A DNA stretch of 64,000 nt from an uncultured Candidatus Saccharibacteria bacterium (lineage in GTDB: Bacteria; Patescibacteriota; Dojkabacteria; B142; OLB20): the NCBI GenBank assembly GCA_964562165.1, contig CAZLRZ010000001.1, positions 1,349 through 65,348 on the forward strand, read 5' to 3'. The notes under the pieces are model-generated. The model saw only the letters and a list, made by a program, of their open reading frames with translations. It did not search any database and had not been told where the DNA came from. Positions within the stretch are counted from its first letter, which is position 1, and each line of letters opens with the position of its first letter. This document shows positions 1,954-43,477 of this stretch, piece by piece. The position numbers and the translations under genes were made by a program.

Positions 1954-2988
1954 CTAATAAACAGCCGTAGCTGTGTAAATGATAGTTGTCTGGTAGAATC
2001 CGGCGGCAGTTGCAGAAGCTATCCCCACCCTATAAAAAACATTTGCTGTTTCAGTTACTTCTGTTGCTCCATACATAACCTCCTCTGGATTTGTTGAAAA
2101 TGCAGCATACTTTGGATTTGAAGGTGTATTTTGAAATCTATTTGGCGTAGCACCCGAGAGTGTATAGTCATTTGTATAATAACCAAAAGCTTCTGTTCCT
2201 GCAGCTGGGAAAACAGTTGGGGAAGCATTTGTGCCGCTATGGTCATTGATATCGTCTACTCCATTTGCAGCTAAAAGTTTTTGTGTATATCTCGTTGTCA
2301 CTGTAAATCCATTTGTTGCGTTTGTTGAGATATTTAATAAATGTGCTCCAGTCCTATTTGTTGCAGTAGTGAGGGTTCCAAATGGTACTGTCCCATCAGT
2401 TGATGTAATATCCGGAGAATAGAGAGGTATATATTCACCCGCTCCAACACCATCAATAGTAAAGGTTAAAGTGGGATCAACACTTGCAGTAACTAATTGG
2501 CTGTTGTTATAAATGTACATAACTGTACCATTATCGACTGGTGAAGAAGCACAATCAGTATTATTATAGGTACTTACCAAAACAAAATAACCAGTTTCGA
2601 TTGTTGACCCGTTTGTAATTCCACTCAAAATAATTGTTCTAGATGTTGCTGCAGCTGGTGTTTGGGCGGTACCAGTTATCGTTGTAACTCCACTTGCATC
2701 AGTATTTACAACTGTCCAACTGGCTGGTGTAGGAATGTATGTACCAGAAAAAGTTGCTGATGCAATATTCATACCTGTTGGCTTAGTTTGCACGCTTGTT
2801 GAAGTCGAAAATGCCACCTTGATACATTGTATGGCTGATACTGTTACATTATCCATTTTTATAGTATAAGACACCGCAGCCTGTGAAGGTCTTGAATCCG
2901 ATAACAACACTGACGAATTTGTGTATGAGGCAGCTTTTACAGGTTGCAGAGCAATGCTAGGCAAGGTTATTAGCAAAACCAAAAACAA
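1954..2988 (-). CDS. Secreted Thr/Ser-rich protein of unknown function
   Basis: Sec-type signal peptide MFLVLLITLPSIALQPVKA|AS, then roughly 30% Thr/Ser and no other TM segment. No recognisable family. Confidence 0.5.
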   Translation of the reverse strand: MFLVLLITLPSIALQPVKAASYTNSSVLLSDSRPSQAAVSYTIKMDNVTVSAIQCIKVAFSTSTSVQTKPTGMNIASATFSGTYIPTPASWTVVNTDASGVTTITGTAQTPAAATSRTIILSGITNGSTIETGYFVLVSTYNNTDCASSPVDNGTVMYIYNNSQLVTASVDPTLTFTIDGVGAGEYIPLYSPDITSTDGTVPFGTLTTATNRTGAHLLNISTNATNGFTVTTRYTQKLLAANGVDDINDHSGTNASPTVFPAAGTEAFGYYTNDYTLSGATPNRFQNTPSNPKYAAFSTNPEEVMYGATEVTETANVFYRVGIASATAAGFYQTTIIYTATAVY

Positions 2989-3019
2989 TTTAATTGTTTT
3001 TTCAGAGTTTTAATAGTTT

Positions 3020-3394
3020 TCATAAAATAAAAATGATTAACACACTGTAAATTAAAGCCAAGAAGACTGCAAGCAGGATAATAAACGTTGCCCTTTCTCG
3101 GTCTTTTTCAATTGAATCGCTATCAATAACATTATGCGGTTCTAGAGCATCGTCGGAATTCTCTTTTTGCGTTATTCCGTACATTACTCCAAATTTATTA
3201 CGGAATTGAATTATTCCAAGAGCGCAAAAATATGCTGGAATAAACACAAGGATTTGTAATAAGGTTGGAAAGATCCAAACATAGCTAATAAAAGTCCAGC
3301 CCATTGTGATCATGCCGGCGCCTATGGCCATATCTTGGAATTTTTGCACATCCTTTGAGCCGGCATTAGAAATGCCTGGTTTATAATTATTCAT
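3020..3394 (-). CDS. Small integral membrane protein (3 predicted TM segments), unknown function
   Basis: 124 aa with three hydrophobic stretches. No motif recognised. Confidence 0.4.
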   Translation of the reverse strand: MNNYKPGISNAGSKDVQKFQDMAIGAGMITMGWTFISYVWIFPTLLQILVFIPAYFCALGIIQFRNKFGVMYGITQKENSDDALEPHNVIDSDSIEKDRERATFIILLAVFLALIYSVLIIFIL

Positions 3395-3472
3395 AATAAA
3401 AGGATACTAAAAATGAAGCGAGATTTGAATATGCTATACTATTTTTATACCTAATTTTAACTTTTTTTAAGT

Positions 3473-4171
3473 ATGTTTTTGCCCTCATTTGATCCAATTT
3501 ACATCCTTTTCGCTTTACCTGCTCTCGTTTTAGGATTTATCGCTACTATATATTTAAATTATATAACTAAGAAGTTCAATACAATTGAAACCAAACGCAA
3601 ATTAAATGGTTTAGAAATAGCCCAAGTAATTGGGAAAAGTGAAGGAATAAAATTCCAAATCAATTTATTTCCGACCCTTCTGAGTGAGTCTTACGATCCA
3701 ACGACTCAAACTTTAAACTTATCAGTTGAAAGCGCACAAAACAGAACTATCACAACTACTGCTATAACTGCTCATGAACTTGGACATATTATTCAACACC
3801 AAAAAGATAGTTTGTTATTTAAAATCAGAACAACTATAGTTCCTCTTGTTAGTTTTGGTACAAATATTGGATATTTTCTATTAATTATAGGTTTAGTTTT
3901 GGAATTCTCAAGCCTAGCATGGCTTGGTATAATTTTCTTTTCTTTAGCTACAATTTTTGCACTTATTACTGTTCCACTTGAATTTGACGCTAGCGAAAAG
4001 GCAATTAGGGTTTTAGAAAAGAACCAAATTATTTTTCCTTCAGAAAAATCGGGTGCAAAAAAGGTATTATTTGCAGCTGCATTAACCTATGTCGCAGGAC
4101 TATTTCAGTCAATCGGACAACTCCTTTACTTTATTTTCCGCATACAGGGGTTTTCAAGGAGTAAAGATTAA
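3473..4171 (+). CDS. Membrane zinc metallopeptidase, YugP/Zn_peptidase_2-like
   Basis: HExxH within TAHELGHIIQHQ. N-terminal TM plus C-terminal TM segments. 232 aa is typical for this family. Confidence 0.55.
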   Translation: MFLPSFDPIYILFALPALVLGFIATIYLNYITKKFNTIETKRKLNGLEIAQVIGKSEGIKFQINLFPTLLSESYDPTTQTLNLSVESAQNRTITTTAITAHELGHIIQHQKDSLLFKIRTTIVPLVSFGTNIGYFLLIIGLVLEFSSLAWLGIIFFSLATIFALITVPLEFDASEKAIRVLEKNQIIFPSEKSGAKKVLFAAALTYVAGLFQSIGQLLYFIFRIQGFSRSKD

Positions 4172-4485
4172 CCAATCAATAAGCCAGATTCTGTATCCTC
4201 CAATTAGTTTTGGATTGAGATAGTAATTTATCTATGCCTAGAAATATTCTAGTTGCTCTAAAGTAAGGGTTACCCAGCATTTCAACTTTACAGTTGAAAC
4301 CGGTGGTCTTTTACACCACCTTTTCACAATCTCCAAATCAATTAAGATTTGGGATTTTGCTTTCTGTGGCCCTGTTCTATAAGCTCACACCTATCCATGT
4401 TTCCATGGTACTTTTTGCTAAATTGAATTAGCTTAGAGTCCGGACTTTCCTCCCCAAATTACTCCGGGGCTACCATCTTGATTAG
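4172..4485 (-). ncRNA. rnpB: RNase P RNA (bacterial type A-like, reduced to ~314 nt)
   Basis: The minus strand reads CCCCGGAGUAAUUUGGGG (P3 hairpin) followed by AGGAAAGUCCGGACUC (the universal P4 5' strand). Further matches are ACAGAAAGCAAAAUCCC, GGUGGUGUAAAAGACCACC, CUGGGUAAC, UAGAUAAAUUACUAUC and the 3' ACAGAAUCUGGCUUAUUGAUU, which pairs with the 5' AAUCAAGAU (P1). The 327-nt interval holds no ORF. Confidence 0.85.
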
Positions 4486-4499
4486 TTGGGATTATTATA

Positions 4500-5072
4500 C
4501 TAGAAATCGACTACTTTCGTAAATGTATACGATTCGTCCTCAAAAAGAATAGTTGCATTTAAACTGTAGCTACCTTTTTCGAAATATTCTTGAAGACCAC
4601 TTCTGTTATTAATATCTTTTGCTTTTTCAATAAAAGAATAATTTACAGAGCTATCATCCATTTTTACAAACGACCAATAAATTTGGAATTCTGAACCTGT
4701 TTCGCCCCATACTACACCTTCAACACTTGGCGTTATTTTAAAATCTACATAAGAATGATCCCCATCTACCAATAAAACTTGCGTATATATTTCAGCATTT
4801 ACTGTCCTTTTGGCTTGTATATTAAAAACCTCTTGTTGGTTAACTGCTAAGACTGCAAATACAACGCCGGCACCTACGACAAACAATCCTAATAATGCAT
4901 AAAGTGATTTCCCTAGAAATCCCGTGGCTGTTTTGTTTTGATTTTCCATGTTTAACTTTCTATTTTTAAAATGAAAAAATACAATAGCTAGTATTACTAA
5001 GATTAATAATACCAAAGCTATAAAAAATAAGCTATTCAAATTTATTGATATTTGCTGTTGAAAATAATCCAT
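4500..5072 (-). CDS. Membrane protein (2 N-terminal TM segments plus an extracytoplasmic domain), last gene of the VirB4-containing operon
   Basis: 190 aa with hydrophobic segments at ~15-35 and ~55-78. Lies 16 nt downstream of the VirB4 ATPase ORF. Confidence 0.45.
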   Translation of the reverse strand: MDYFQQQISINLNSLFFIALVLLILVILAIVFFHFKNRKLNMENQNKTATGFLGKSLYALLGLFVVGAGVVFAVLAVNQQEVFNIQAKRTVNAEIYTQVLLVDGDHSYVDFKITPSVEGVVWGETGSEFQIYWSFVKMDDSSVNYSFIEKAKDINNRSGLQEYFEKGSYSLNATILFEDESYTFTKVVDF

Positions 5073-5088
5073 AATCCTTTAAACTCTT

Positions 5089-7104
5089 TTATGTTGTTAA
5101 ATTCGTTTTTATCACACTTTTTTGGGGCTGAACATCTTTTACTCCCGAAATCTCCTCCTTATCTTTACTTTCCATTGCCAAAATTTCTCTAAGATTAGTT
5201 GTTATTAAGTTATGTTCGTTTTCGCTTGCTAATACTTGTATTGCAACATGATTATAATCGGCAAAGAATAAGCCTTCACCAATACCCGCTGAAAGTAGGT
5301 AATCCTTTTCTCCATCTGATAAATAAAAGACTTTTTGAATTTGATCAACTGCAGCGGCATTTTGCTTTAACAATAATTGAATTGACGAGTTGTTAACTAC
5401 GGCCTTTCCGTAATCGGATGTTAAAAAGTCATTAACATCTTGTGTGATTGTTGTTACTCCTAAGCCGTATTTCCTTGATCTTTTTACAATAGAATAGACA
5501 AAACGAGCCGCATCAGGATATTGCATCATCCACCAAGCCTCATCAATAATTAGAATACGTTGTCGCTTATCCTTTTTAACTAAAGTCCAGATATAGTCTA
5601 ACATCACATACATTGCTACAGGTCTGAGTTCATCTGACAAATCTCTAATACTGAAGGCTGTAAAGGTATTATTTATTTTTACATTCGTAGCCTGGTCAAA
5701 AACACCTGCAGCGCTACCTTTAATAAATCTTTCGATTTTACTGGCTAGTAGATGGGCTTCGTCTTCGGCCATTGCATTAAGGATTTTATACAAATCTTCT
5801 AATAGTGGTGGAGGTCTTCGTTGAGTGGATGGATCAGGAGTAATCCCCTTTTCTTTATATGTCAAAATCAAGGCCCTATCAAGAATAGCAGTTTCTATTG
5901 GGCTTATTGTGCCCCCGACCATAATTCTAATTAGGCCTTGTAAAAATAGGATCTTAAATCTCAATTCATCTTCATCCTTTTCGAAAATACCTGATAGTTC
6001 AAATGGATTTAGTTTAGCCCCGGAATCTTGAGAGAATGTAATATATTCCCCGCCAATAGCATTTGTGAGTTTTTCATATTCTTTTTCAGGATCGATAATC
6101 ATAACGTGGGTTCCAAGCATCAAACTACGCATTGCTTCTAGTTTTACAAAATAACTTTTTCCGGCTCCAGAGGTTGCGAATATTACCATATTAGGGTTAG
6201 GCATTTGGAACCTATCAAAAATGATCAAACTTTTATTGTGCTTATTTATTCCATACATTATGCCGTCATCCATTGTAAGTTCCGAGGATACAAATGGGAA
6301 CGTTGTCGCTAATGAGGTTGTGTCCATATTCCTATTAAGATAGATTTTGTCATATCCCAAAGGAAGCGTGGAAATAAAGCCCTGCTCTTGTTGTAATGAT
6401 GCAACTTTAACAATTACACCTATTGCAGAAAGAGTTGATTCAACATTTCTTGAAATTTCTTCAAGTTCTTTAAGGTTAGTTGAACGAATAGTTACATATA
6501 GGGCAAAGTGGAAGAACTTCTGATTGCCCGAGGCGATCTGATCTTGGAGTTCTTCAGCTGAACGCAATGCGACTTTAACATTTGGGTCTGGTAGCTTGCC
6601 TGATTCTAGGTCAATATTAATAGTCGCTTGGAATTCAGTGATTTTTCTCTTTAACCTTTGTAATACAAGGCCCGAATCTGTTGGATAATAAAAAGTCGAA
6701 ATTGTAATAGGTTTCTCAAAGTTTATTAGAGGAGACAGCCAATTTGCGCCCACCCAGGTTGGGAATCCTGTCGCAAAGAAAGTTCTAAAATATTTACTAC
6801 CGATTTGCATATTGTTGAAATCGATTTCGATTGCAGGTGGAGCAATAATATCTTTAACATCAACGATACCTTCTGAGAAATTTTTAATTGCGTCTTCTTC
6901 TAGTTCACTATCCGTTTTGGTTTCAGTAACCTTTACTTGTGGCTTGCCCATAACTGACTCTAGAGCCTGTTTAATTCCGGTGCTTTGTTGTGGGGCAGCC
7001 TGCGTAGACTGAGCCCCCGCCACAGCAGTATTAGACTGAGGCCCAGCTTCTTGAGTTTGTGGTTTTGAAGGTTTTCTTCCTAATAGTGCGTCTAATATAT
7101 TCAT
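5089..7104 (-). CDS. VirB4/TrbE/CagE-family type IV secretion ATPase, C-terminal ATPase part
   Basis: Walker A FATSGAGKSYF and Walker B ILIIDEAWWMM (DEAW is characteristic of VirB4). 671 aa. Its start overlaps the upstream stop in a TAATG. Confidence 0.6.
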   Translation of the reverse strand: MNILDALLGRKPSKPQTQEAGPQSNTAVAGAQSTQAAPQQSTGIKQALESVMGKPQVKVTETKTDSELEEDAIKNFSEGIVDVKDIIAPPAIEIDFNNMQIGSKYFRTFFATGFPTWVGANWLSPLINFEKPITISTFYYPTDSGLVLQRLKRKITEFQATINIDLESGKLPDPNVKVALRSAEELQDQIASGNQKFFHFALYVTIRSTNLKELEEISRNVESTLSAIGVIVKVASLQQEQGFISTLPLGYDKIYLNRNMDTTSLATTFPFVSSELTMDDGIMYGINKHNKSLIIFDRFQMPNPNMVIFATSGAGKSYFVKLEAMRSLMLGTHVMIIDPEKEYEKLTNAIGGEYITFSQDSGAKLNPFELSGIFEKDEDELRFKILFLQGLIRIMVGGTISPIETAILDRALILTYKEKGITPDPSTQRRPPPLLEDLYKILNAMAEDEAHLLASKIERFIKGSAAGVFDQATNVKINNTFTAFSIRDLSDELRPVAMYVMLDYIWTLVKKDKRQRILIIDEAWWMMQYPDAARFVYSIVKRSRKYGLGVTTITQDVNDFLTSDYGKAVVNNSSIQLLLKQNAAAVDQIQKVFYLSDGEKDYLLSAGIGEGLFFADYNHVAIQVLASENEHNLITTNLREILAMESKDKEEISGVKDVQPQKSVIKTNLTT

Positions 7105-7769
7105 TATTTACTTGATGTATATTGTGTAGTTTTAAGTTGTAATTTCGAAACCCCTAATTTATCAGGATCGTACATAGAATAATAAAGCCTGATAAGCCTA
7201 TCATTATCTAATTGGAATGCATTTAGCCCAATATTTTTAAATTGTTTTATAAAATTCTCTCTTTTTGGGAATAATCTTGGCTTTACTTCATCTAGCATTG
7301 AATTTATGTTTATGATCCTTTCTTTTTTGCCAAAGAACTGTTTAACTCCACTCGTTTTCTGAACTGTGCCTCCACTTTCTGGGATTACAATATAGAAGGT
7401 TTTGTCTAGGATATCTTTATTGGCAGTTAGATTCTGAATAAATTGCATATAAATATCAATTTGCCTTTTTAGGGCATCAGAAATTTGCTTTTCCCTATAT
7501 ACCTTTAGTCTGTCGATATATCCACTAATATCAGTTCTTTCGGTCTTAATTACTATTTGAAAAGGGAAGTCCAAGGAATTCAAAATTGCAGCAAAGCTCA
7601 TAATCTTCATGTCTTGTTCTTTTTCTGACAACAAATCGAAGTTTAAAGCATTTACCTCAAGCACCATTGAAATCATTCCGTTTTTCAAAATGACCAAATC
7701 ATCGCGAATATCTTCTATTGCAAGATGCTGTTGAGTGCTAGGACTTGTTGATGGACCGAATAATCCCAT
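7104..7769 (-). CDS. VirB4-family N-terminal domain (CagE_TrbE_VirB-like) encoded as a separate ORF
   Basis: 221 aa. IEDIRDDLVILKNGMISMVLEVNALNFDLLSEKEQDMKIMSFAAILNSLDFPFQIVIKTER resembles the VirB4 N-domain consensus (…ddgvl.tkdGsl…v.g.d.e…e.e…). Together with the next ORF it totals ~892 aa, which is VirB4-sized. Confidence 0.45.
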   Translation of the reverse strand: MGLFGPSTSPSTQQHLAIEDIRDDLVILKNGMISMVLEVNALNFDLLSEKEQDMKIMSFAAILNSLDFPFQIVIKTERTDISGYIDRLKVYREKQISDALKRQIDIYMQFIQNLTANKDILDKTFYIVIPESGGTVQKTSGVKQFFGKKERIININSMLDEVKPRLFPKRENFIKQFKNIGLNAFQLDNDRLIRLYYSMYDPDKLGVSKLQLKTTQYTSSK

Positions 7770-8776
7770 TAATTTATAGCTTTTATAACTAAATCTAATA
7801 ATTTCCCTTCTTCTATATTAACGCTTATGCGATCAAAGTTGAAGTTTGGTTTTGATATGTCTAAGTAATAATCGCCACTTGGCAATTGATTGATTAATTC
7901 AAACCGTCCATCCGCATTGCTGTTTAACGACCTCACCAATTTGCCAGACAAATCAATAATATCAATTTTCGCAGATTTCACAGGTTGATTGAATGCATCA
8001 ACAACAATTCCTGTTAAAAATAGCTTAATATTATTATTCTTTACTACTGCAGCAGTAGGATTTGAAGTGTTAAAATCCACCGGCCTATTTACCCTACTTG
8101 TCATTGGTTTAAAAGATACTGCATAATTTGAGCCCTCGTATAATTTTTCGCCCTTGAAATCCTGCGTGATTGAATCGGCAATGGTCTCGGGCTTTTTGTA
8201 CATAGTGTCGTTTTGTGGTGGAGTGTTTTCTGCCACCTGAGCAGTTCTTTGTGGCTTTTCGCCTTGGATTTCCGGGACTTGATTAAACAAGAAATCAAAA
8301 TGTTCGTTTATTTTGCTGAGATTGTCATCCTCAAATTTGTCTAGTTTTTCTTCTTCTACAGATAGTTTTTCAAGGGGTTGATCAGGAATGTTAGCAACAC
8401 GCATTCGTGATAAAGCATTATCGATTTCTTTACCAGGAGCTTTTGTGACAGTTTCCGCTTTTGATTCCTGAAGGATTTCAGGAACTACAGGCGTTTTGCG
8501 CCATAATCTTTCTTGGGGTTCAAAAAGGCTATTTACAAAGTTTTGAAGATATATAACTGCAGACTGACCATTTATTTTGACAACTGCCAGAATAATTCCT
8601 CCGCCAATAGAAATAGCGATAAAAATATATTTTAAGATTTCGGGGATTTCCGAGTAGTAGAGCAAAAGGGCTAATATAAAGCCTACAGCCAAATATCCAA
8701 ACTGTTTTACAGTAAAGAACCCGAATAGTTTGAACTCAACATCCATAAAATTATGGGGCACTGGATGTCTTTCCAT
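7769..8776 (-). CDS. Membrane protein with 2 N-terminal TM segments and a C-terminal CarboxypepD_reg-like beta-sandwich domain
   Basis: C-terminus GIVVDAFNQPVKSAKIDIIDLSGKLVRSLNSNADGRFELINQLPSGDYYLDISKPNFNF matches the carboxypeptidase-regulatory-domain pattern. The two TM helices lie at residues ~20-70. Confidence 0.4.
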   Translation of the reverse strand: MERHPVPHNFMDVEFKLFGFFTVKQFGYLAVGFILALLLYYSEIPEILKYIFIAISIGGGIILAVVKINGQSAVIYLQNFVNSLFEPQERLWRKTPVVPEILQESKAETVTKAPGKEIDNALSRMRVANIPDQPLEKLSVEEEKLDKFEDDNLSKINEHFDFLFNQVPEIQGEKPQRTAQVAENTPPQNDTMYKKPETIADSITQDFKGEKLYEGSNYAVSFKPMTSRVNRPVDFNTSNPTAAVVKNNNIKLFLTGIVVDAFNQPVKSAKIDIIDLSGKLVRSLNSNADGRFELINQLPSGDYYLDISKPNFNFDRISVNIEEGKLLDLVIKAIN

Positions 8777-8796
8777 TGAATTTAAAAAATTTTAAC

Positions 8797-9264
8797 TTAT
8801 TTAATATCAACAATCACATATTCATTTTCGCCTGCTGGCGTTGCGAATTGAAAAACTTGGTCTTTCTTTTTCCCAACAATTGCCATGCCTAGTGGGGCTT
8901 CAACTGAAATTTTACCGTTTGTTGGATCAGCTTCACTTGGGCCGACTAATTCAAAAGTTGATTTCGAATTGGTTGTTTTGTTTAATACAACGACAGTCTT
9001 GCCAATTGAGGCATTTGAACTGTTCTTGTTTTCAACGATTATTACAGCGTTTTTTATCATATCGTCTAATTCGACGATCTTTTTTTCGTTAAATTCTTTT
9101 TCATCCATTGCAGCTTTGTATGCCGCATTTTCTGAAAGATCTCCCTGCTCTCTAGCAGTTTCAATTTCGTCTGCAATCTTTTCCCGGAGTTTAGTTAAAC
9201 GCTCTTCAAGCTCTTTTTTTAAGTCAACTAAGCCTTCTTTTGTAATTTGAATTTTAGTATCCAT
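8797..9264 (-). CDS. greA: Transcription elongation factor GreA
   Basis: 155 aa. N-terminal coiled coil with the acidic tip DLSENAAYKAA. C-terminal FKBP-like domain (…GKTVVVLN…FELVGPSEADP…ISVEAPLGMAIVGKK). Confidence 0.85.
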   Translation of the reverse strand: MDTKIQITKEGLVDLKKELEERLTKLREKIADEIETAREQGDLSENAAYKAAMDEKEFNEKKIVELDDMIKNAVIIVENKNSSNASIGKTVVVLNKTTNSKSTFELVGPSEADPTNGKISVEAPLGMAIVGKKKDQVFQFATPAGENEYVIVDIK

Positions 9265-12200
9265 TATCGGTTAATTTTAAAATTAAAAGTTTTTGAGTTT
9301 ACAAACTGACCTTTGAATAAATATCCATTTGTTTGATTAATTGAGTTTTCAGTTATAGGAACCACATGATCCAGTGTATCTTCAAACAAAAACTCTAAAT
9401 CATAATTGATTAAGGTACCGGAAATGGAATTTATCTTGAAAAGATAATTATAGCTTGAATCGGTAGTTTTTTCAAAAACTCCAGTTTTATAATTTAACCC
9501 ATATTTTAAGTCGTCATCGGGAAGGACTATAGCGCATATCTTTTGAAGGCTCAGAACATCAAAGGCTTGAGAATAATTTTCGGTTGCTGTCTCATTTATT
9601 TCAAGTTCGGCTATGCTACTTGGCATACAAAAATATGTATTCGCAATTCCATCGGCATTAAATTTTACTTTAAAACTTTTTACCGTAGATAAATCCTTTT
9701 TAACTGTAATATTACCTGAAAACTCAATTTCGCTAAGGCTATTAAATTTGTTTGTTGATCCATCGGAATTCATACCGATATATATTTGATCTTTTACAGA
9801 ACTTTCAGGCACTAAACTCATTATAAATCTCTGGAAAATTGGGTCGTTACTAAAAAGCTTTATATCTTTTGAATTAACAGCCGATTCAATTGATTTCCCA
9901 ACAGACTTATCTTTAAAGACATTATTTACTTTGTTTTCCAACAAATTTGAACTGTACGAAATCACAAGATTGCTTCGCTGTTGATCTGTAGCATCAGAAG
10001 AAAGTAAATTATTGAATACATCAAAGAAATTATCGGAATTAAAAACCTTTTGTTTAAAATTGAGATCGTTATTTTCTCCGGTAATCATAGCAAAAGCATT
10101 TAGATTCACAATTATTCCCATATCTACATTAGTAGCCTCTTTTGCCTCGACTAATTCTTCGACTTCATCATAAAAAAGATCCATATCCGATATATAGTTT
10201 ATATCGTCAAAAACAATATTACCCTGAGTAAGTATTTTTTTGCTAACTAAGGTTATATCTTTAAATGCAGCTTGCGAAAGATTGGGGTTCGTATTTTGAA
10301 ACTCAGAAAAGTTTACAAATTTTACGGTAATAATTTTGGCATTTTGTACGCCAAATAAATAATATCCAACTAACTTTCCGCCACTAGCATAAAATCTTTG
10401 ATTGTCCTGAATTAAAAGAAGATAGTTTTTAATTTTATCTTTTCCGGTAATTAGATTGAGATTATTCACAGATTCAACTATTTTGCTACCCTCATTTTGA
10501 GTATCAACCACATCTTTTACTTCATCTCCAATTAGACTGACAACCCAACCCGGCATGGATTCAAGGGCAACTAAAATTTTCTTTGAATTTTCCTCCATCG
10601 CCTTATTACCTAAAGAAAGTAAGGATTTATTTGAATTCAGACTGTTCAGATCTTCTAAATAATCGGCTTTAGTGCTTGAGATTACTAATTGATCATCTAG
10701 CCTTTGGACAAATCCGGGGGAAAACTTTGTTTTGAAACTATCTAAAGGAATAAGCGACTTTGAAAAATTATCCAGACCCGAAAAATATTGTTCTAATTGC
10801 GAAATAAAGATTCGAGCATTTGCATAGTCATCGTTTTTATTAAAAATGATAAACACATACTCTAAATCTTTCAGCCTAGCTTCAATGTTATTGATATTGT
10901 CTAATATCTCATTAGTTTTAACATTAATCTCATTAAAGTTGTAAGTATCCCTCGACTTAGATATGGTGGTTATGTTTTGCCTTAAAAAGAAAACTTCTTT
11001 GGATAAATTTAATACAGGCGACAAGAATATAAAATAAACAATTAAAAAGGTTATTATCCCAACCATCCATAGGCCAAATTCCCTTAATGTTAGGTTCTTA
11101 AATATATTTACTTTTTGTTTTATTCTTATAAACAAATCATTTAGCCAATTATCGAACCTTTCCAAAGGTGTTCTATCCGGTTTTTTTTGAAGCGCCTCTC
11201 TTAGATTGTTATTTGCTAAAATAATACTACCCTTTCTGGCTCTTTCTTGGTTTTTTCGCTCTGCTATTAGTCTTGCTAAAGCTCCTTCGCTATTAAGGTT
11301 TGAGGTGTTAACTTCGGGGATGGTTGGATCGTCTTCTTTTGAAGCAATAAAGAAGAAATCAAGGAATCCTTTCTTCTGTTCTTTTCGATTCTTTGAGCCG
11401 GAAATTGGAATTAGTTCTTTTTCAAGTGAAGACACATTTCCATTTACTTCGCTCAGCCTTGCTTTAATAAAATCTATCGTTTGCGATAAAGCTCTATCAA
11501 ATGAAATTCTCGGAGACCATCCGATAGACGTTAGATTAGTAGCCGGTTTATATAACTTGATTGGTGGCAATGTATTATCGTTCTGGTCAAATTGGATTTC
11601 TTTCGCAGAAGGAATCAGTTCTATCATCTTGTACGCAATACCTAATACAGAGATTTCTTCTTCATTTGAAAGGGTGAAAATTTGCCCTTTTGTATTCGGA
11701 GAAAATTGAGCCTTTATTATCCCGTATGCGGCGTCTAAATAATGAATATAGAAGTCCGTATCTAATCCGTCCCCTGGAATTATCAACCTTTCACCTTGTA
11801 AAGCTTGAATAATTAATTTAACTATAAATGAGTCCAGATTAATTTCCATCCCCCTACCAAGTAATGTCCCTAAGCGAACTATCCTGGTATTTATTCCCAC
11901 TTTCTCTTGATATTCTTTTACTAAACTTTCGGAATATCTTTGGATTTCGAGTTCGGAATAAACCGAATATTTTTCAGCAGTCTGCAATTCATAATTTAAA
12001 TCAATAACTTTATTCCCAACAATTGTTTGATGAGCCTTAATAGAAGTGGTTAACAAAAATTTGGCATCAAATTTTGCCGTAAGATCAAGCACAGTGTCTA
12101 AATAATTTGATGCCTGTAAAAATTCTTGCGTAGAAATTTTTTGGCTATAATCGGCATACTGATGATCCAGATAAAACACATAATCGAGCCTTCTCAAATC

Positions 12201-12428
12201 GCTTTGCAAAGTGCTTATACCACTATAATCCATCAGGATTAGATTTTGATAGGAATCAATTAATGGTAAATATTTTTCAACTTCCCGGCTGCCTCGATCA
12301 ACAATAATTACAAACCCTCCTTGTTCTAAAAGGGATTTAGCAAGCTCTATACCCAATAAGTCTTGCCCCCTAACAATAATTGAAGTTGGGAATTTTACTG
12401 CATTTTTTAATTGATTGGCAGTGACCAT
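9264..12428 (-). CDS. 1054-aa membrane protein: cytoplasmic degenerate SDR/epimerase-like N-domain, one TM, large extracytoplasmic region
   Basis: Residues ~15-300 resemble NAD-dependent epimerases (IIVRGQDLLGIELAKSLLEQGGFVIIVD; FYIHYLDAAYGIIKA) but lack GxxGxxG and YxxxK. A TM segment sits at ~445-470 (LWMVGIITFLIVYFIFLSPVL). Confidence 0.45.
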   Translation of the reverse strand: MVTANQLKNAVKFPTSIIVRGQDLLGIELAKSLLEQGGFVIIVDRGSREVEKYLPLIDSYQNLILMDYSGISTLQSDLRRLDYVFYLDHQYADYSQKISTQEFLQASNYLDTVLDLTAKFDAKFLLTTSIKAHQTIVGNKVIDLNYELQTAEKYSVYSELEIQRYSESLVKEYQEKVGINTRIVRLGTLLGRGMEINLDSFIVKLIIQALQGERLIIPGDGLDTDFYIHYLDAAYGIIKAQFSPNTKGQIFTLSNEEEISVLGIAYKMIELIPSAKEIQFDQNDNTLPPIKLYKPATNLTSIGWSPRISFDRALSQTIDFIKARLSEVNGNVSSLEKELIPISGSKNRKEQKKGFLDFFFIASKEDDPTIPEVNTSNLNSEGALARLIAERKNQERARKGSIILANNNLREALQKKPDRTPLERFDNWLNDLFIRIKQKVNIFKNLTLREFGLWMVGIITFLIVYFIFLSPVLNLSKEVFFLRQNITTISKSRDTYNFNEINVKTNEILDNINNIEARLKDLEYVFIIFNKNDDYANARIFISQLEQYFSGLDNFSKSLIPLDSFKTKFSPGFVQRLDDQLVISSTKADYLEDLNSLNSNKSLLSLGNKAMEENSKKILVALESMPGWVVSLIGDEVKDVVDTQNEGSKIVESVNNLNLITGKDKIKNYLLLIQDNQRFYASGGKLVGYYLFGVQNAKIITVKFVNFSEFQNTNPNLSQAAFKDITLVSKKILTQGNIVFDDINYISDMDLFYDEVEELVEAKEATNVDMGIIVNLNAFAMITGENNDLNFKQKVFNSDNFFDVFNNLLSSDATDQQRSNLVISYSSNLLENKVNNVFKDKSVGKSIESAVNSKDIKLFSNDPIFQRFIMSLVPESSVKDQIYIGMNSDGSTNKFNSLSEIEFSGNITVKKDLSTVKSFKVKFNADGIANTYFCMPSSIAELEINETATENYSQAFDVLSLQKICAIVLPDDDLKYGLNYKTGVFEKTTDSSYNYLFKINSISGTLINYDLEFLFEDTLDHVVPITENSINQTNGYLFKGQFVNSKTFNFKINR

Positions 12429-13111
12429 TAAATAGTTTTAATTATTTTAACCGGTTGCAAAAACAAATTTACCTCAAGATTAATTGTAAGATCCTTTAAT
12501 TTATCCCGACTTTCTTGATCTTCGGGCAGGATCATAAACTCTAAAGAATCATATCCGTCTTTTTCAAATCGGATTTTATGCTGTCTACTAATATCTAATT
12601 CTAATTCATTTAAAGGAGTAGTTCCAATTTGTTCATCATCTATGAAAACGTTTACTTCTATAGGAGCAGAGATTACATTCAAAATTGGATTCTCATTTTT
12701 CTTAAAGTTTTTAGAAGCGTATAAAATATGCCCCTCCGTAAAAGCCTCTGATGGGCCTAAATCGTAAGCCATAACAACTTCAACTCCCGAAATAAAATTT
12801 ATTTCTTTGTTTAATTCAAAATATACATTGCCCGCTTCGGACTTTCTTTGGAGTTTGATCAAATGCATTCCTTCTTTAATGGTGTTAATTTCTGCAAAAG
12901 ATTCATCATCCACAACATTGCCCTCAAGTTTTTCATCAACATAAATATCAATACTGCCTGAAAGGGATTTAACCTTTAATGTTGAATAAGTACTATCCTT
13001 ATCAATCCCAATTAAAGATAAAAAGGAAAAGTCCCAACTATTCCATGGGGACCAAATTCCAATAAGAACTAATACTATTAACAGTAAAACTATTCTGCCG
13101 AGGTTTTTCAA
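12428..13111 (-). CDS. Membrane-anchored protein with a PEGA-like domain (TTG start)
   Basis: N-terminal TM. C-terminal VNVFIDDEQIGTTPLN fits the PEGA motif. The start codon is TTG at 13109-13111. First gene of the operon. Confidence 0.35.
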   Translation of the reverse strand: MKNLGRIVLLLIVLVLIGIWSPWNSWDFSFLSLIGIDKDSTYSTLKVKSLSGSIDIYVDEKLEGNVVDDESFAEINTIKEGMHLIKLQRKSEAGNVYFELNKEINFISGVEVVMAYDLGPSEAFTEGHILYASKNFKKNENPILNVISAPIEVNVFIDDEQIGTTPLNELELDISRQHKIRFEKDGYDSLEFMILPEDQESRDKLKDLTINLEVNLFLQPVKIIKTI

Positions 13112-13289
13112 TTTTTGATAACTATTTTCAAAAATTATAGCAATAAACCATGATAACCTCTACTTTTATTTTCAATGAAATGATAAAATAATCATAAGCG
13201 ATTAAGGATTTGGTGTAAGCCTTAAAAATTTAGTGATTACAACCAAATATTCTCTTGAGAGTCTTAAAATTTCAAGCTTTTGAAGATTT

Positions 13290-13400
13290 TAAGGAATAAA
13301 GGTGGCACCACCCAAGATTTTTATAAATTTAAGGGCCCTTTTAGATTGTATTTTATAATCTAAAGCGGCTCTTTTTTTATTTATATTTTTTACCAAATAC
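13290..13400 (+). promoter_or_regulatory. Candidate aspS leader: T-box-like GGUGGCACC element plus a hairpin/U-run attenuator
   Basis: AAAGGTGGCACCACCC resembles the T-box core (AGGGUGGNACCGCG). UGGC would pair with the GCCA 3' end of tRNA-Asp or tRNA-Asn. Hairpin TTTAGATT...AATCTAAA, then GCGGCTCTTTTTTT, ends 20 nt before the ATG. Confidence 0.2.
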
Positions 13401-13403
13401 CAA

Positions 13404-15191
13404 ATGCAACGAATCTTATCAAATGAATTGAAAAACCAAATCGGCAACGAAGTTATGCTAGAAGGCTGGCTTCATAACCTAAGGACAATGGGCAAATTGG
13501 CCTTTCTAATTTTGCGTGATAGAACTGGTTTGAGCCAAATTGTTTTAGATTCTGTTGATGAAATCAAAAAGCTCGACAATCTATACACCGGTTCGGTTCT
13601 AAGAATAGTTGGGAACGCAGTTTTATCTGAGAAATCTCAATATGGTGTTGAAATCCAAAATTCAAAAATCGAAGTAATGCAACCTGTAAAATACCCTAGC
13701 CCAGTTGATATTTCAAAAAATGATTTGAATGTGGAGTTTGATACTTTGCTTGAAAATCGCGTAGTAACTTTAAGACACCCAAAGCAATCTGCGATTTTCA
13801 AAGTTGCAGGTATTGCCGAAAAAGTAATGCGTGACTTTTATAATAAAAATGAGTTCACACAAATTAATTCACCAAAAATGATTGCCTTCCCAACCGAAGG
13901 CGGTGCTGAGGTTTTTGAGGTCAACTACTTTGATAAAAAGGCGTATATGGCTCAAAGCCCTCAGTTTTATAAACAGATGATGGTCGGTGTTTTTGAAAAA
14001 GTATATGAAATCGGTAGAGCCTACCGTGCAGAAAAAAGTAATACCAGCAGGCATCTTTCGGAGATCCTAATGTTGGATATGGAAATGGGATTTATAAATT
14101 CCTTTGAGGACGTTCTAAATACTAGTGAATCCTTTATAAAATACGTTTGTGAAAATACTTGGAACGAAGCGGCCCCTTTACTTGAAGGCCTTGGAGCAAA
14201 AAAGCCAATAATTTCGGAAAAGCTTCCAAGAATTAGTGTAAAAGATTTACACGAATTAATGAAAAAAGAAACCGGCGAAGATCATACTAGCGAACTCGAC
14301 GTTGCTCCTTCTGAAGAAAAATTTATAAGCGAATATTCACAAAAGAACTGGAATAGCGAAGCGCTATTTATTGTTGACTTCCCTTGGTCCGATGCAAAAT
14401 TTTATCATCATCAAAGCGAAACCAACCCAGAAAATGCTGATCGAGCCGACTTAATTTTTAGAGGCGTTGAACTTGCTACAATTACAAGGCGTGAAGTCAA
14501 TTACGAAAAGCTAGTCTCACAAATCCAAGCAAAAGGAATGGATTCCAATCACCCAGGCCTAGCGCAATATCTTGAAGCCTTTAAATTTGGAATGCCCGAA
14601 GAAGGCGGCTTTGGTTTAGGTATTGCAAGATTCGTTCAAAAAATGATAGGCCTCGATAATGTAAAAGAAGCCGAACTATTTCCATCGGATCCTAAGCTAA
14701 TCGGTGGAGTTCGAATTGCTCCTAAGGTGTTTTTTGGCAAAGAGTTAAATTCTGAAATATTATCCCAATTAACAAAAGGTAAAATTACCTATGAAAAGGT
14801 AACTCATGAACCCGCAAAAACATCTGAGGAATCGGCCATTCAAAGAAAAACCAATCTTGATGAAGGTGTAAAAGCAATAATTCTTCGAGGTAAAAGAACA
14901 GGAAAAAACATTATGGTTTGTATTCCTGCTGATCAAAAACTAAATATGGACATATTATCCAGTTTTGAAAGTGAAAAGTTTGAGTTTGAAAACCCTCAAA
15001 TAATTAAAGATAAGTTCGGCTTGGAACTCGGATCAATTCCTCCATTTGGCAACTTGCTAGGAATGACTACGTATTTCTCAAATGATATAGAACAAAAAGC
15101 ATTATCAGCTTTCAATGATGGACTTACAACAGAGTCCATCAAGATGCAGCCAGCAGATTTAATTAAATTAATAAATCCAATATTAGTTTGA
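13404..15191 (+). CDS. aspS: Aspartyl-(or asparaginyl-)tRNA synthetase, class IIb archaeal/eukaryotic-type core, fused to a C-terminal YbaK/ProX-like deacylase domain
   Basis: Motif 2 AYRAEKSNTSRHLSEI and motif 3 GGFGLGIARFV. Core of ~440 aa. C-terminal ~150 aa (KAIILRGKRTGKNIMVCIPADQKLNMDILSS…LGSIPPFGNLLGMTTYFSNDI) aligns by eye to E. coli YbaK (K.LL…K.LAVAV.P….LDLKK….TGY.VGGISPLG). Confidence 0.8.
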   Translation: MQRILSNELKNQIGNEVMLEGWLHNLRTMGKLAFLILRDRTGLSQIVLDSVDEIKKLDNLYTGSVLRIVGNAVLSEKSQYGVEIQNSKIEVMQPVKYPSPVDISKNDLNVEFDTLLENRVVTLRHPKQSAIFKVAGIAEKVMRDFYNKNEFTQINSPKMIAFPTEGGAEVFEVNYFDKKAYMAQSPQFYKQMMVGVFEKVYEIGRAYRAEKSNTSRHLSEILMLDMEMGFINSFEDVLNTSESFIKYVCENTWNEAAPLLEGLGAKKPIISEKLPRISVKDLHELMKKETGEDHTSELDVAPSEEKFISEYSQKNWNSEALFIVDFPWSDAKFYHHQSETNPENADRADLIFRGVELATITRREVNYEKLVSQIQAKGMDSNHPGLAQYLEAFKFGMPEEGGFGLGIARFVQKMIGLDNVKEAELFPSDPKLIGGVRIAPKVFFGKELNSEILSQLTKGKITYEKVTHEPAKTSEESAIQRKTNLDEGVKAIILRGKRTGKNIMVCIPADQKLNMDILSSFESEKFEFENPQIIKDKFGLELGSIPPFGNLLGMTTYFSNDIEQKALSAFNDGLTTESIKMQPADLIKLINPILV

Positions 15192-42162: not shown

Positions 42163-42869
42163 TATTTGGTTGATTTAACTGTTTTTGGTTTAACTTCTTT
42201 TTTAACTGTTTCTTTCTTTACGGTTTCTTTCTTTACTGCTTTTTTTGTTCCCCAGAAGTTATAGATAGATTCTAGTGAAGATTCTAAAATAACTACTTTA
42301 GCTGCATTCAAAATATCATAATAGTTTACTGAATTTACGACTTCTAAGTTCAAAGTTTCAATGTTATGAGCAGAGTTTACTAAGAATTGATCTGCATCTT
42401 TTTGAATCATTAATACTTTTTCATCTTTTAATTTACCTAGAATCTTTAATAGATCTTGTGTTTTAGCTGAATCGAATTTCAAATCTTGAAATACAACTAC
42501 ATTACCTGCTTTTGCTTGCATTGATAAACTTGATACCATTGCAATTTTTCGCATCTTTTTGTTTAAAGTCTTTTTATAATTGATTTCATTTGTTGGACCG
42601 TATGTAACTCCGCCACCTTTCCAGATAGGAGATCTACTTGAACCGGCTCTTGCTTTACCTGTACCTTTTTGTTTCCATGGTTTTTTACCACCACCGCTAA
42701 CTTCTCCTCTGTTTTTTGTATGAGCATTACTTTGTCTTCGATTAGCTAAATAGGTTCTAACTGCTTGAGCAAGTAAAACCTTGTTAATTTTTGCATCAAA
42801 GACTTCATCTCTAACTTCTAATTTAGATTTGATTTCTTTACCTTTGTTATCAAAATATTCTACTAACAT
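42162..42869 (-). CDS. rplD: 50S ribosomal protein L4 with a Lys-rich C-terminal repeat tail
   Basis: …SGGGKKPWKQKGTGKARAGSSRSPIWKGGGVTYGP…; tail VKKETVKKETVKKEVKPK. Confidence 0.9.
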   Translation of the reverse strand: MLVEYFDNKGKEIKSKLEVRDEVFDAKINKVLLAQAVRTYLANRRQSNAHTKNRGEVSGGGKKPWKQKGTGKARAGSSRSPIWKGGGVTYGPTNEINYKKTLNKKMRKIAMVSSLSMQAKAGNVVVFQDLKFDSAKTQDLLKILGKLKDEKVLMIQKDADQFLVNSAHNIETLNLEVVNSVNYYDILNAAKVVILESSLESIYNFWGTKKAVKKETVKKETVKKEVKPKTVKSTK

Positions 42870-43477
42870 TATTTGTTTCCTGTAATAATAACTAATGATT
42901 CTTTATTTCCTGGAACTGCGCCTTTTAAGGCTAATAAATTGTTTTCTTTATCAATATTAATAATTCTCAAATTCTTTGTTGTCTTAGTATCTGAACCCAT
43001 TCTTCCACCCATTTTGTGACCTTTGAAAACTCTACCTGGGGTTGTTCTCATACCGATTGATCCAGTATGTCTTTGTCTATCAGACTGTCCGTGAGTTCTA
43101 TTACCACCGTGGAATCCCCATCTCTTAACTACTCCTTGAAAACCCTTACCTTTTGTTTCTCCGGTTACGTTTACTTTTTTGATTGATTCAAAAATTTCGA
43201 CAGTAACTTTATCTTTAATGTTTAATTCAAGATCAATTTCAGCTTCTACTGCATATTGTGGCACATATCCTAGTTCTTTGAATTTACCGAGTTCTGCTTT
43301 AGTAGGATTTTTCTTTTTACCAATACCTAAAACATAAGCAGTATATCCATCTTTTTCGGCTGTTTTTTTATGTGCAACAATTACATCAGAAGAATCAATG
43401 AAGGTTACTGGTACTACAGTTCCATCTTCCTGAAAAATCTGTGACATATTCTTTTTTATACCAATCAAAGTTTTCAT
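42869..43477 (-). CDS. rplC: 50S ribosomal protein L3
   Basis: MKTLIGIKKNMSQIFQEDGTVVPVT…GKGFQGVVKRWGFHGG…. Confidence 0.9.
   Translation of the reverse strand: MKTLIGIKKNMSQIFQEDGTVVPVTFIDSSDVIVAHKKTAEKDGYTAYVLGIGKKKNPTKAELGKFKELGYVPQYAVEAEIDLELNIKDKVTVEIFESIKKVNVTGETKGKGFQGVVKRWGFHGGNRTHGQSDRQRHTGSIGMRTTPGRVFKGHKMGGRMGSDTKTTKNLRIINIDKENNLLALKGAVPGNKESLVIITGNK

Follow-up and report, generated by a model that had tools for sequence, protein, structure and literature searches.

Is a virB4 gene that is written as two open reading frames (ORFs) a working pair of genes, or is it a single gene that has been broken by mutation or in assembly? The question is raised by a 64,000-nucleotide (nt) stretch of contig CAZLRZ010000001.1 (hereafter the window), on the minus strand of which an ORF of 221 amino acids (aa) (ORF1, 7104..7769) runs into one of 671 aa (ORF2, 5089..7104). 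The initial annotation took the two for the N-terminal domain and the ATPase of VirB4, a component of type IV secretion systems (T4SS), and set a genuine split, a pseudogenizing frameshift, and an assembly error side by side. We find that the pair is very probably a genuine and conserved two-gene VirB4, a TrsD-like protein together with a shortened ATPase, of the chromosomal T4SS of a Patescibacteria (Dojkabacteria/WS6-like) bacterium, so that it is the first of these options that the data favor. Direct support comes from the homology of both parts, from the conservation of the split, from purifying selection on both halves, and from natural fused forms with a short linker.

The ORF listing and the sequence agree that the two minus-strand frames meet as first described, at a TAATG with a 1-nt overlap (7102..7106). 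The minus strand here reads ...ACA TCA AGT AAA TAA TGA AT..., the stop codon of ORF1 (TAA, 7106-7104) sharing its last nucleotide with the ATG of ORF2 (7104-7102). The ORF1 frame carries tandem stops, TAA and then TGA; the ORF2 frame has a TAA of its own at 7110-7108, 6 nt before its ATG. Given this upstream stop and the stop of ORF1, both frames are open together at essentially one position (~7107).

The reading of the 671-aa ORF as a Walker A/B ATPase holds. Its residues 73-621 match positions 177-733 of the 752 in the CD1110-family VirB4 model (NF045971, E = 3e-118) with 396 bits, above the cut-off of 325 for this family, and it also matches positions 242-726 of TIGR00929 (VirB4). The Pfam P-loop domains P-loop_TraG, AAA_10, and DUF87 are matched as well, all three above their cut-offs. 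No part of ORF2 matches positions 1-176 of the CD1110 model; the full-length architecture is thus absent, and the part of VirB4 that ORF2 is missing is the one encoded by ORF1. Three portions make up ORF2: a conserved start motif at residues 1-12 (MNILDALLGRKP; 7069-7104, minus strand), a variable low-complexity linker at residues ~13-86, and the VirB4 core at residues 87-647, which holds the rest of the N-terminal half together with the hexameric Walker A/B ATPase.

ORF1 is matched by three NCBIfam models. Its residues 11-151 correspond to positions 7-141 of the 792 in TIGR00929 (E = 6.6e-6), residues 11-130 to positions 103-234 of the 894 in NF045975 (VirB4_plasma, E = 2.1e-11), and residues 12-131 to positions 15-144 of the 201 in NF041427 (TrsD/TraD, E = 3.6e-6). 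The context is that of the TrsD/TraD family too: a gene of ~200-230 aa between a VirB3-like gene and an N-terminally short VirB4-like ATPase. Judged by its sequence, ORF1 is a remote TrsD/TraD homologue of the same architecture and context, and not a formal member of NF041427. A homologue search found 243 proteins, the best 120 of which (43%-100% identity) are all 146-263 aa long and consist of this domain alone. The AlphaFold2 model of ORF1 (predicted local distance difference test score [pLDDT] 72.5, predicted template modeling score 0.61) is folded over residues 16-200, with low-confidence, disordered ends (residues 1-15 and 201-221). In a Foldseek comparison with the PDB, the top 14 matches of this model are all TrwK/VirB4 chains of R388 (probability 0.90-1.0), and the next family scores below 0.5. 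Searching the PDB by sequence profile, with alignment A1, yielded no matches even at E ≤ 10. The likeness to a VirB4 N-terminal domain that was noticed at the outset is therefore borne out by NCBIfam and by alignment to a fused relative (below), and the Foldseek matches agree with it at modest scores: ORF1 represents, as a stand-alone protein, the first subdomain (~200 residues) of the N-terminal region of VirB4. What had been missed is that this protein corresponds to the known TrsD/TraD family; the arrangement is the published norm.

Whether the two halves make a whole VirB4 can be judged from relatives in which they are fused. A profile of the ORF1 homologues, searched against 1.84 billion representative proteins, gave 3243 relatives, and the best 150 of these include a single fused protein: P0205 (MEK7091100.1, Patescibacteria group bacterium), whose 787-aa form is present in five assemblies. 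Residues 7-198 of P0205 align to residues 9-200 of ORF1 (38% identity), and residues 213-773 align to residues 87-647 of ORF2 (55% identity). The two ORFs abut on this fused VirB4, and nothing is missing between them. The linker is 14 aa in P0205 versus 107 aa in the window (21 in the tail of ORF1 and 86 in the head of ORF2), ~93 more, and the extra residues around the break are mostly low-complexity. The expectation that the combined ~892 aa equal a normal VirB4 thus stands as far as coverage goes, since the whole protein is represented, but not for length: the sum is ~105 aa above that of the fused form, with the excess all in the junction linker. The AlphaFold2 model of P0205 (pLDDT 71.6) superposes on full-length TrwK with a template modeling (TM) score of 0.70-0.72 (E = 4e-28), and the crystallized C-terminal ATPase domain of Thermoanaerobacter VirB4 reaches a TMq of only 0.41 of the P0205 model. 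Alignments and models together put the break within the N-terminal half of VirB4, behind its first subdomain of ~200 residues. The division into two parts that was proposed at first is therefore kept, but its border falls inside the classical N-terminal half and not between that half and the ATPase domain.

Scanning species-representative genomes turned up 386 relatives, and we analyzed the best 80 loci, which belong to Dojkabacteria/WS6, Woykebacteria, Curtissbacteria, Microgenomates, Doudnabacteria, Nomurabacteria, and metagenome-assembled genomes labeled Saccharibacteria. One of the 80 is without the ATPase part, and the other 79, together with loci L001-L005 and the window, give 85 loci that have both parts. 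The gene is split in all 85 and fused in none: the comparison of related loci proposed at the outset finds no uninterrupted ORF in the window or in any of the 84 others. Relative to the stop of the N-domain, the ATPase starts at -1 in 25 loci, at -8 in 11, at +1 in eight, and at +2 in six; the remaining loci mostly have other small offsets (-14, -4, 0, and others), and all three relative frames are used. The 221-aa protein occurs at 100% identity on four contigs, and L001, L002, and L006, which are independent assemblies of different samples, have the identical junction sequence AGTAAATAATGAATATA. Measured against the orthologous locus L001 (88%-92% identical), ORF1 has a ratio of nonsynonymous to synonymous divergence (dN/dS) of 0.030 and ORF2 one of 0.027, with dS saturated. 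Within ORF2 the ratio falls to 0.013 in the core and rises to 0.21 over residues 1-86. The tail of ORF1 (residues 201-221) is 100% conserved in this comparison, and ORF2 keeps its first 12 residues, after which comes the variable, indel-bearing linker. Both ORFs are under strong purifying selection.

These observations bear directly on the explanations in which the pair is a damaged or misread single gene. Were an intact virB4 broken by a 1-nt indel and now decaying, as the pseudogene option of the initial annotation has it, the frames of ORF1 and ORF2 would be one nucleotide apart, as they are, and the fused full-length relatives in other Patescibacteria make a single-ORF state possible. Against such decay stand the dN/dS of 0.03 on both halves (at saturated dS), the split in 85 out of 85 loci, a conserved start motif proper to ORF2 and a conserved C-terminal tail proper to ORF1, and a linker that is ~93 residues longer than in the fused form, a difference that is no simple indel; we consider this explanation effectively refuted and exceedingly improbable. 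An error of sequencing or assembly at the junction, limited to this one assembly, has a probability that is practically nil. The region is A/T-rich (AAATAATGAAT) and homopolymer miscalls are possible there, but the same 221-aa protein stands on four contigs, the same junction is read in the three independent assemblies, and the upstream TAA in the ORF2 frame and the tandem stops of ORF1 mean that one specific base would have to be wrong. The split in all loci, the identical junctions, and the low dN/dS values together exclude both an assembly error and a pseudogene. Programmed recoding, by which a ribosomal frameshift would yield a fused VirB4 besides or instead of the two products, is very improbable as well, even though ORF1 and ORF2 lie in frames offset by -1, an AAA Lys codon stands just before the junction (AGT AAA TAA TG), and fused forms are functional elsewhere. 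The junction has no slippery heptamer of the type X XXY YYZ, and a slip would be confined to exactly one codon by the TAA at 7110-7108. Relatives use all three frames, including in-frame arrangements with stops and spacers of up to ~36 nt; this variety argues against conserved programmed frameshifting and leaves no single conserved mechanism. On this evidence frameshift mutation, assembly error, and recoding were all rejected.

An explanation of a different kind accepts the two genes but takes the 221-aa protein for an independent accessory factor, in substrate recruitment, for example, that only distantly resembles the VirB4 N terminus. It could draw on the many stand-alone homologues with Q/P/S/T-rich tails of 100-480 aa, which are absent from canonical VirB4, and on the TrsD homologues of Gracilibacteria, which are not next to virB4 (Quinonero-Coronel et al. 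2025, Microb Genom, PMC12102498). It is nevertheless unlikely: in natural fusions a linker of 14 aa joins the same domain (38% identity) directly to the ATPase, the model of the fused protein can be superposed on TrwK over its full length (TM 0.7), the partner ATPase is without exactly this domain, and adjacency and overlap are conserved among the loci.

Several observations weigh against the two-gene VirB4 that we prefer, or at least against parts of it. The window holds five TAATG overlaps (7102-7106, 7767-7771, 9262-9266, 12426-12430, and 42867-42871), four of which lie within the run 13111..5089, where they chain the genes for a PEGA protein, a 1054-aa epimerase/DUF4012 protein, GreA, PrgI, TrsD, and VirB4; the 335-aa PrgI-like ORF (8776..7769) is joined to ORF1 by an identical TAATG (7771-7767). 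As TAATG is common in this genome, the overlap fits translational coupling but does not single out the split. Neither the TAATG start of ORF1 nor that of ORF2 is preceded by a clear Shine-Dalgarno sequence. The match of ORF1 to NF041427 has 26.9 bits, far below the curated NCBI cut-off of 200, and ORF1 matches no family in our local copy of Pfam-A, even at E ≤ 1 (nor does its homologue P0121 at E ≤ 0.01); the label "TraC-like" (PF26593, version PF26593.2) on the identical protein P0001 and on most homologues is a precomputed one only. The scores of the ORF1 model against TrwK are modest (TMq ~0.4, E = 2.5e-3). Finally, the coupling and the stoichiometry of the two products, and their physical interaction, are points that we infer.

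How a two-gene VirB4 might work is suggested by the geometry of the junction: the TAATG overlap and the tight junctions in most relatives are consistent with translational coupling of ORF1 and ORF2, and the overlap at 7102..7106 would then be a site of termination and reinitiation. The PrgI/VirB3-like protein, the TrsD-like protein, and VirB4 would thereby be made in matched amounts through overlapping stop and start codons. The TrsD-like protein would bind the ATPase in trans and, by analogy with TrwK/VirB4 of R388, would anchor the shortened ATPase to the PrgI/VirB3-like membrane protein and to the membrane. In R388, according to a review (PMC12857230), the VirB4 N-terminal domains link protomers, sit embedded in the inner membrane, and touch both VirB3 and VirB8. 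The gene order PrgI/VirB3-like, TrsD-like, VirB4 matches the N-to-C order of contacts in full-length VirB4.

Both fused and split forms occur among Patescibacteria. In a set of 120 proteins closely related to P0205 (Amesbacteria/Microgenomates), 43 are fused, with the N-domain at the N terminus, and 67 are split. In a neighbor-joining tree of the ATPase core, drawn without support values, fused forms fall in at least five clades interleaved with split ones; Fitch parsimony counts seven changes, at least one of which is due to a partial protein. The detached ATPases begin in different ways. A start motif of the type M-[GA]-[LI]-[LF]-D-x-L..KKK is present in ~40 of the 85 detached ATPase ORFs; in a looser form, M-[GA]-[LI]-[LF]-[DP]-x-[LF]..K/R-rich, it likewise describes ~40 of the 85 loci, among them the window and loci in the range L003-L079. 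Another ~40 of the 85 have a different extension of ~120 aa with an NYNRTFENK...GEKY motif. The fused form has neither. Many stand-alone N-domain proteins (e.g., P0192, P0154, and P0130) consist of the ~225-aa domain followed by a Q/P/S/T-rich, apparently disordered tail of 100-480 aa, for which there is no Pfam match; the counterpart of this low-complexity tail in the window is the N terminus of the ATPase ORF (~13-86), not the TrsD-like protein. The start motif, which may resemble N-terminal amphipathic membrane-binding helices, might be a membrane or docking peptide. We propose, tentatively and as one possibility, that the boundary between the TrsD-like protein and VirB4 is a labile joint, repeatedly fused and split in Patescibacteria, across which the detached halves keep contact through new elements. 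These appear to be the conserved ATPase start motif and a hypervariable disordered tether, which can be on either partner and is up to 480 aa long on TrsD-like proteins. If this is true, nature would offer in the T4SS motor a system in which to see how an essential machine tolerates gene fission.

Two side observations concern these relatives. About ten VirB4 ATPases from Amesbacteria/Microgenomates are 1158-1215 aa long and contain intein and homing-endonuclease domains (PF14890 and PF14528) within the ATPase (P0328, P0329, P0332, P0338, P0339, P0380, P0382, P0391, and P0407). A few loci deviate at the junction: the N-domain ORF of L016 (WS6 OLB20) is cut short by an early stop, and in L034, L016, and L005 the ATPase can start no sooner than 651, 150, and 117 nt, respectively, beyond the stop of the N-domain. 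These deviations may be local errors, longer linkers, or inserted sequence.

In the window, the cassette has the order PrgI/VirB3-like, TrsD-like, VirB4 within a long minus-strand string of genes, is chromosomal, and is flanked by GreA and Zn-peptidase genes. The 335-aa membrane protein (7769..8776, minus strand) has Pfam matches to PrgI at residues 5-91 (E = 1.6e-6) and to CarboxypepD_reg, a C-terminal beta-sandwich, at residues 254-329 (E = 6.6e-10). Of 76 related loci, 68 have an upstream PrgI-like match in the same orientation, and L001-L005 have PrgI, N-domain, and ATPase in the order of the window. There is no relaxase among the scanned neighbors of the cassette. The locus therefore has what marks a Patescibacteria-type T4SS: a chromosomal virB4, adjoining TrsD and PrgI/VirB3 homologues, and no relaxase nearby. 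In L003, a Saccharimonadales relative, the PrgI/VirB3-like and CarboxypepD_reg parts are separate genes of 206 and 903 aa (2653-5981); the PrgI/CarboxypepD_reg boundary is a second variable joint within the cassette.

On the other side, 16 nt downstream from virB4, is a gene for a predicted membrane protein of 190 aa (4500..5072, minus strand) with two predicted N-terminal hydrophobic segments. It is found in the equivalent position in L001, L002, and L005, has a dN/dS of 0.08, has only five homologue clusters in 5.8 billion proteins, and matches no Pfam or NCBIfam family above threshold. The gene probably shares the virB4 operon, and its product could be a fast-evolving T4SS membrane component. 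Farther upstream, the 1054-aa protein (9264-12428, minus strand), whose gene has a TAATG overlap with that of GreA, combines an N-terminal NAD-dependent epimerase domain with a DUF4012 match and is syntenic in relatives (1002-1055 aa). A promoter and terminator scan of 4200-13500 gave counts of promoter-like sites equal to the shuffled expectation and no convincing terminator inside the cassette.

The two-gene arrangement itself is already known, as the published norm for the T4SS of Patescibacteria (PMC12102498) and of plasmids of the pGO1/pSK41 type, and the feature in the window is an ordinary instance of this architecture. The lability of fusion and split, and the features of the linker and the start motif, are only mildly new. 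For annotation, the result means that "TrsD-like VirB4 N-terminal domain protein" should replace "hypothetical protein" as the name of the 221-aa product and that the pair should not be called a frameshifted pseudogene; the renaming applies equally to "hypothetical" genes on Firmicutes plasmids (below). The T4SS of Patescibacteria is reported to be essential for epibiotic growth (PMC12102498, PMC12857230). A motor assembled from two polypeptides and a VirB3-like anchor is relevant to structural work, a point that has already been published.

The closest comparison is with the Patescibacteria themselves. TrsD, a remote homologue of the VirB4 N terminus, is the most abundant T4SS component of this group, with 2,272 homologues, 1,664 of them associated with VirB4, that is, in its neighborhood; its S. 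epibionticum ML1 homologue is classed as essential, and the chromosomal VirB4 belongs to a Patescibacteria-specific clade related to MPF_FATA, with TrsD and PrgI/VirB3 homologues (Quinonero-Coronel et al. 2025). The Patescibacteria T4SS has also been described by Wang et al. (2023), as cited in that study. We cite the homology of TrsD as reported there since the name "TrsD" is not in the main text of Guglielmini et al. (2014). Quinonero-Coronel et al. (2025) report that no VirB3-VirB4 fusion was found in Patescibacteria, and their main text makes no mention of TrsD-VirB4 fusions, junction geometry, or the linker. There is no difference in kind between these systems and the window, which is a further instance from a Dojkabacteria-like genome.

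The same order and near-identical sizes are found in pSK41/pGO1 (MPF_FATA, pGO1 subclass). pSK41 of Staphylococcus aureus has trsC in the VirB3-like position, trsD (227 aa, annotated as TrsD/TraD family), and trsE (672 aa, DUF87), that is, 227 + 672 aa compared with 221 + 671 aa here. The identity of the proteins is low (25%-30%): ORF1 matches pSK41 TrsD with a BLASTP E of 7e-7, and ORF2 matches TrsE with 25% identity over 604 aa (E = 1e-43). trsD and trsE are 14 nt apart, whereas the genes in the window overlap, and pSK41/pGO1 serve plasmid conjugation with a relaxase and a coupling protein, whereas the present cassette is chromosomal, between housekeeping genes (GreA and AspRS). A tblastn search found the N-domain in 73 plasmid records, mostly of Bacillus and Clostridium. 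In the two plasmid contexts that we examined, a "hypothetical protein" of 237-274 aa overlaps a VirB4-like gene of ~620-645 aa: On a Pontibacillus plasmid (L087, 3887-6566), genes of 274 and 621 aa overlap by 11 nt, and on a Bacillus thuringiensis plasmid (L088, 3935-6560), genes of 237 and 645 aa overlap by 26 nt. Both N-domain genes are unannotated in RefSeq.

In R388 TrwK (PDB 7O41, 7O42, 7O43, 8RTB, and 8RTD) and in the CD1110 family, the whole protein that ORF1 and ORF2 cover is a single polypeptide, whereas the VirB4 of the window consists of two. The VirB3-VirB4 fusions, of Campylobacter plasmids, for example, as cited in Quinonero-Coronel et al. (2025), are in the fused state, the opposite of the split in the window; with them, the VirB3, N-terminal, and ATPase modules form a collinear series whose members can be joined or separated.

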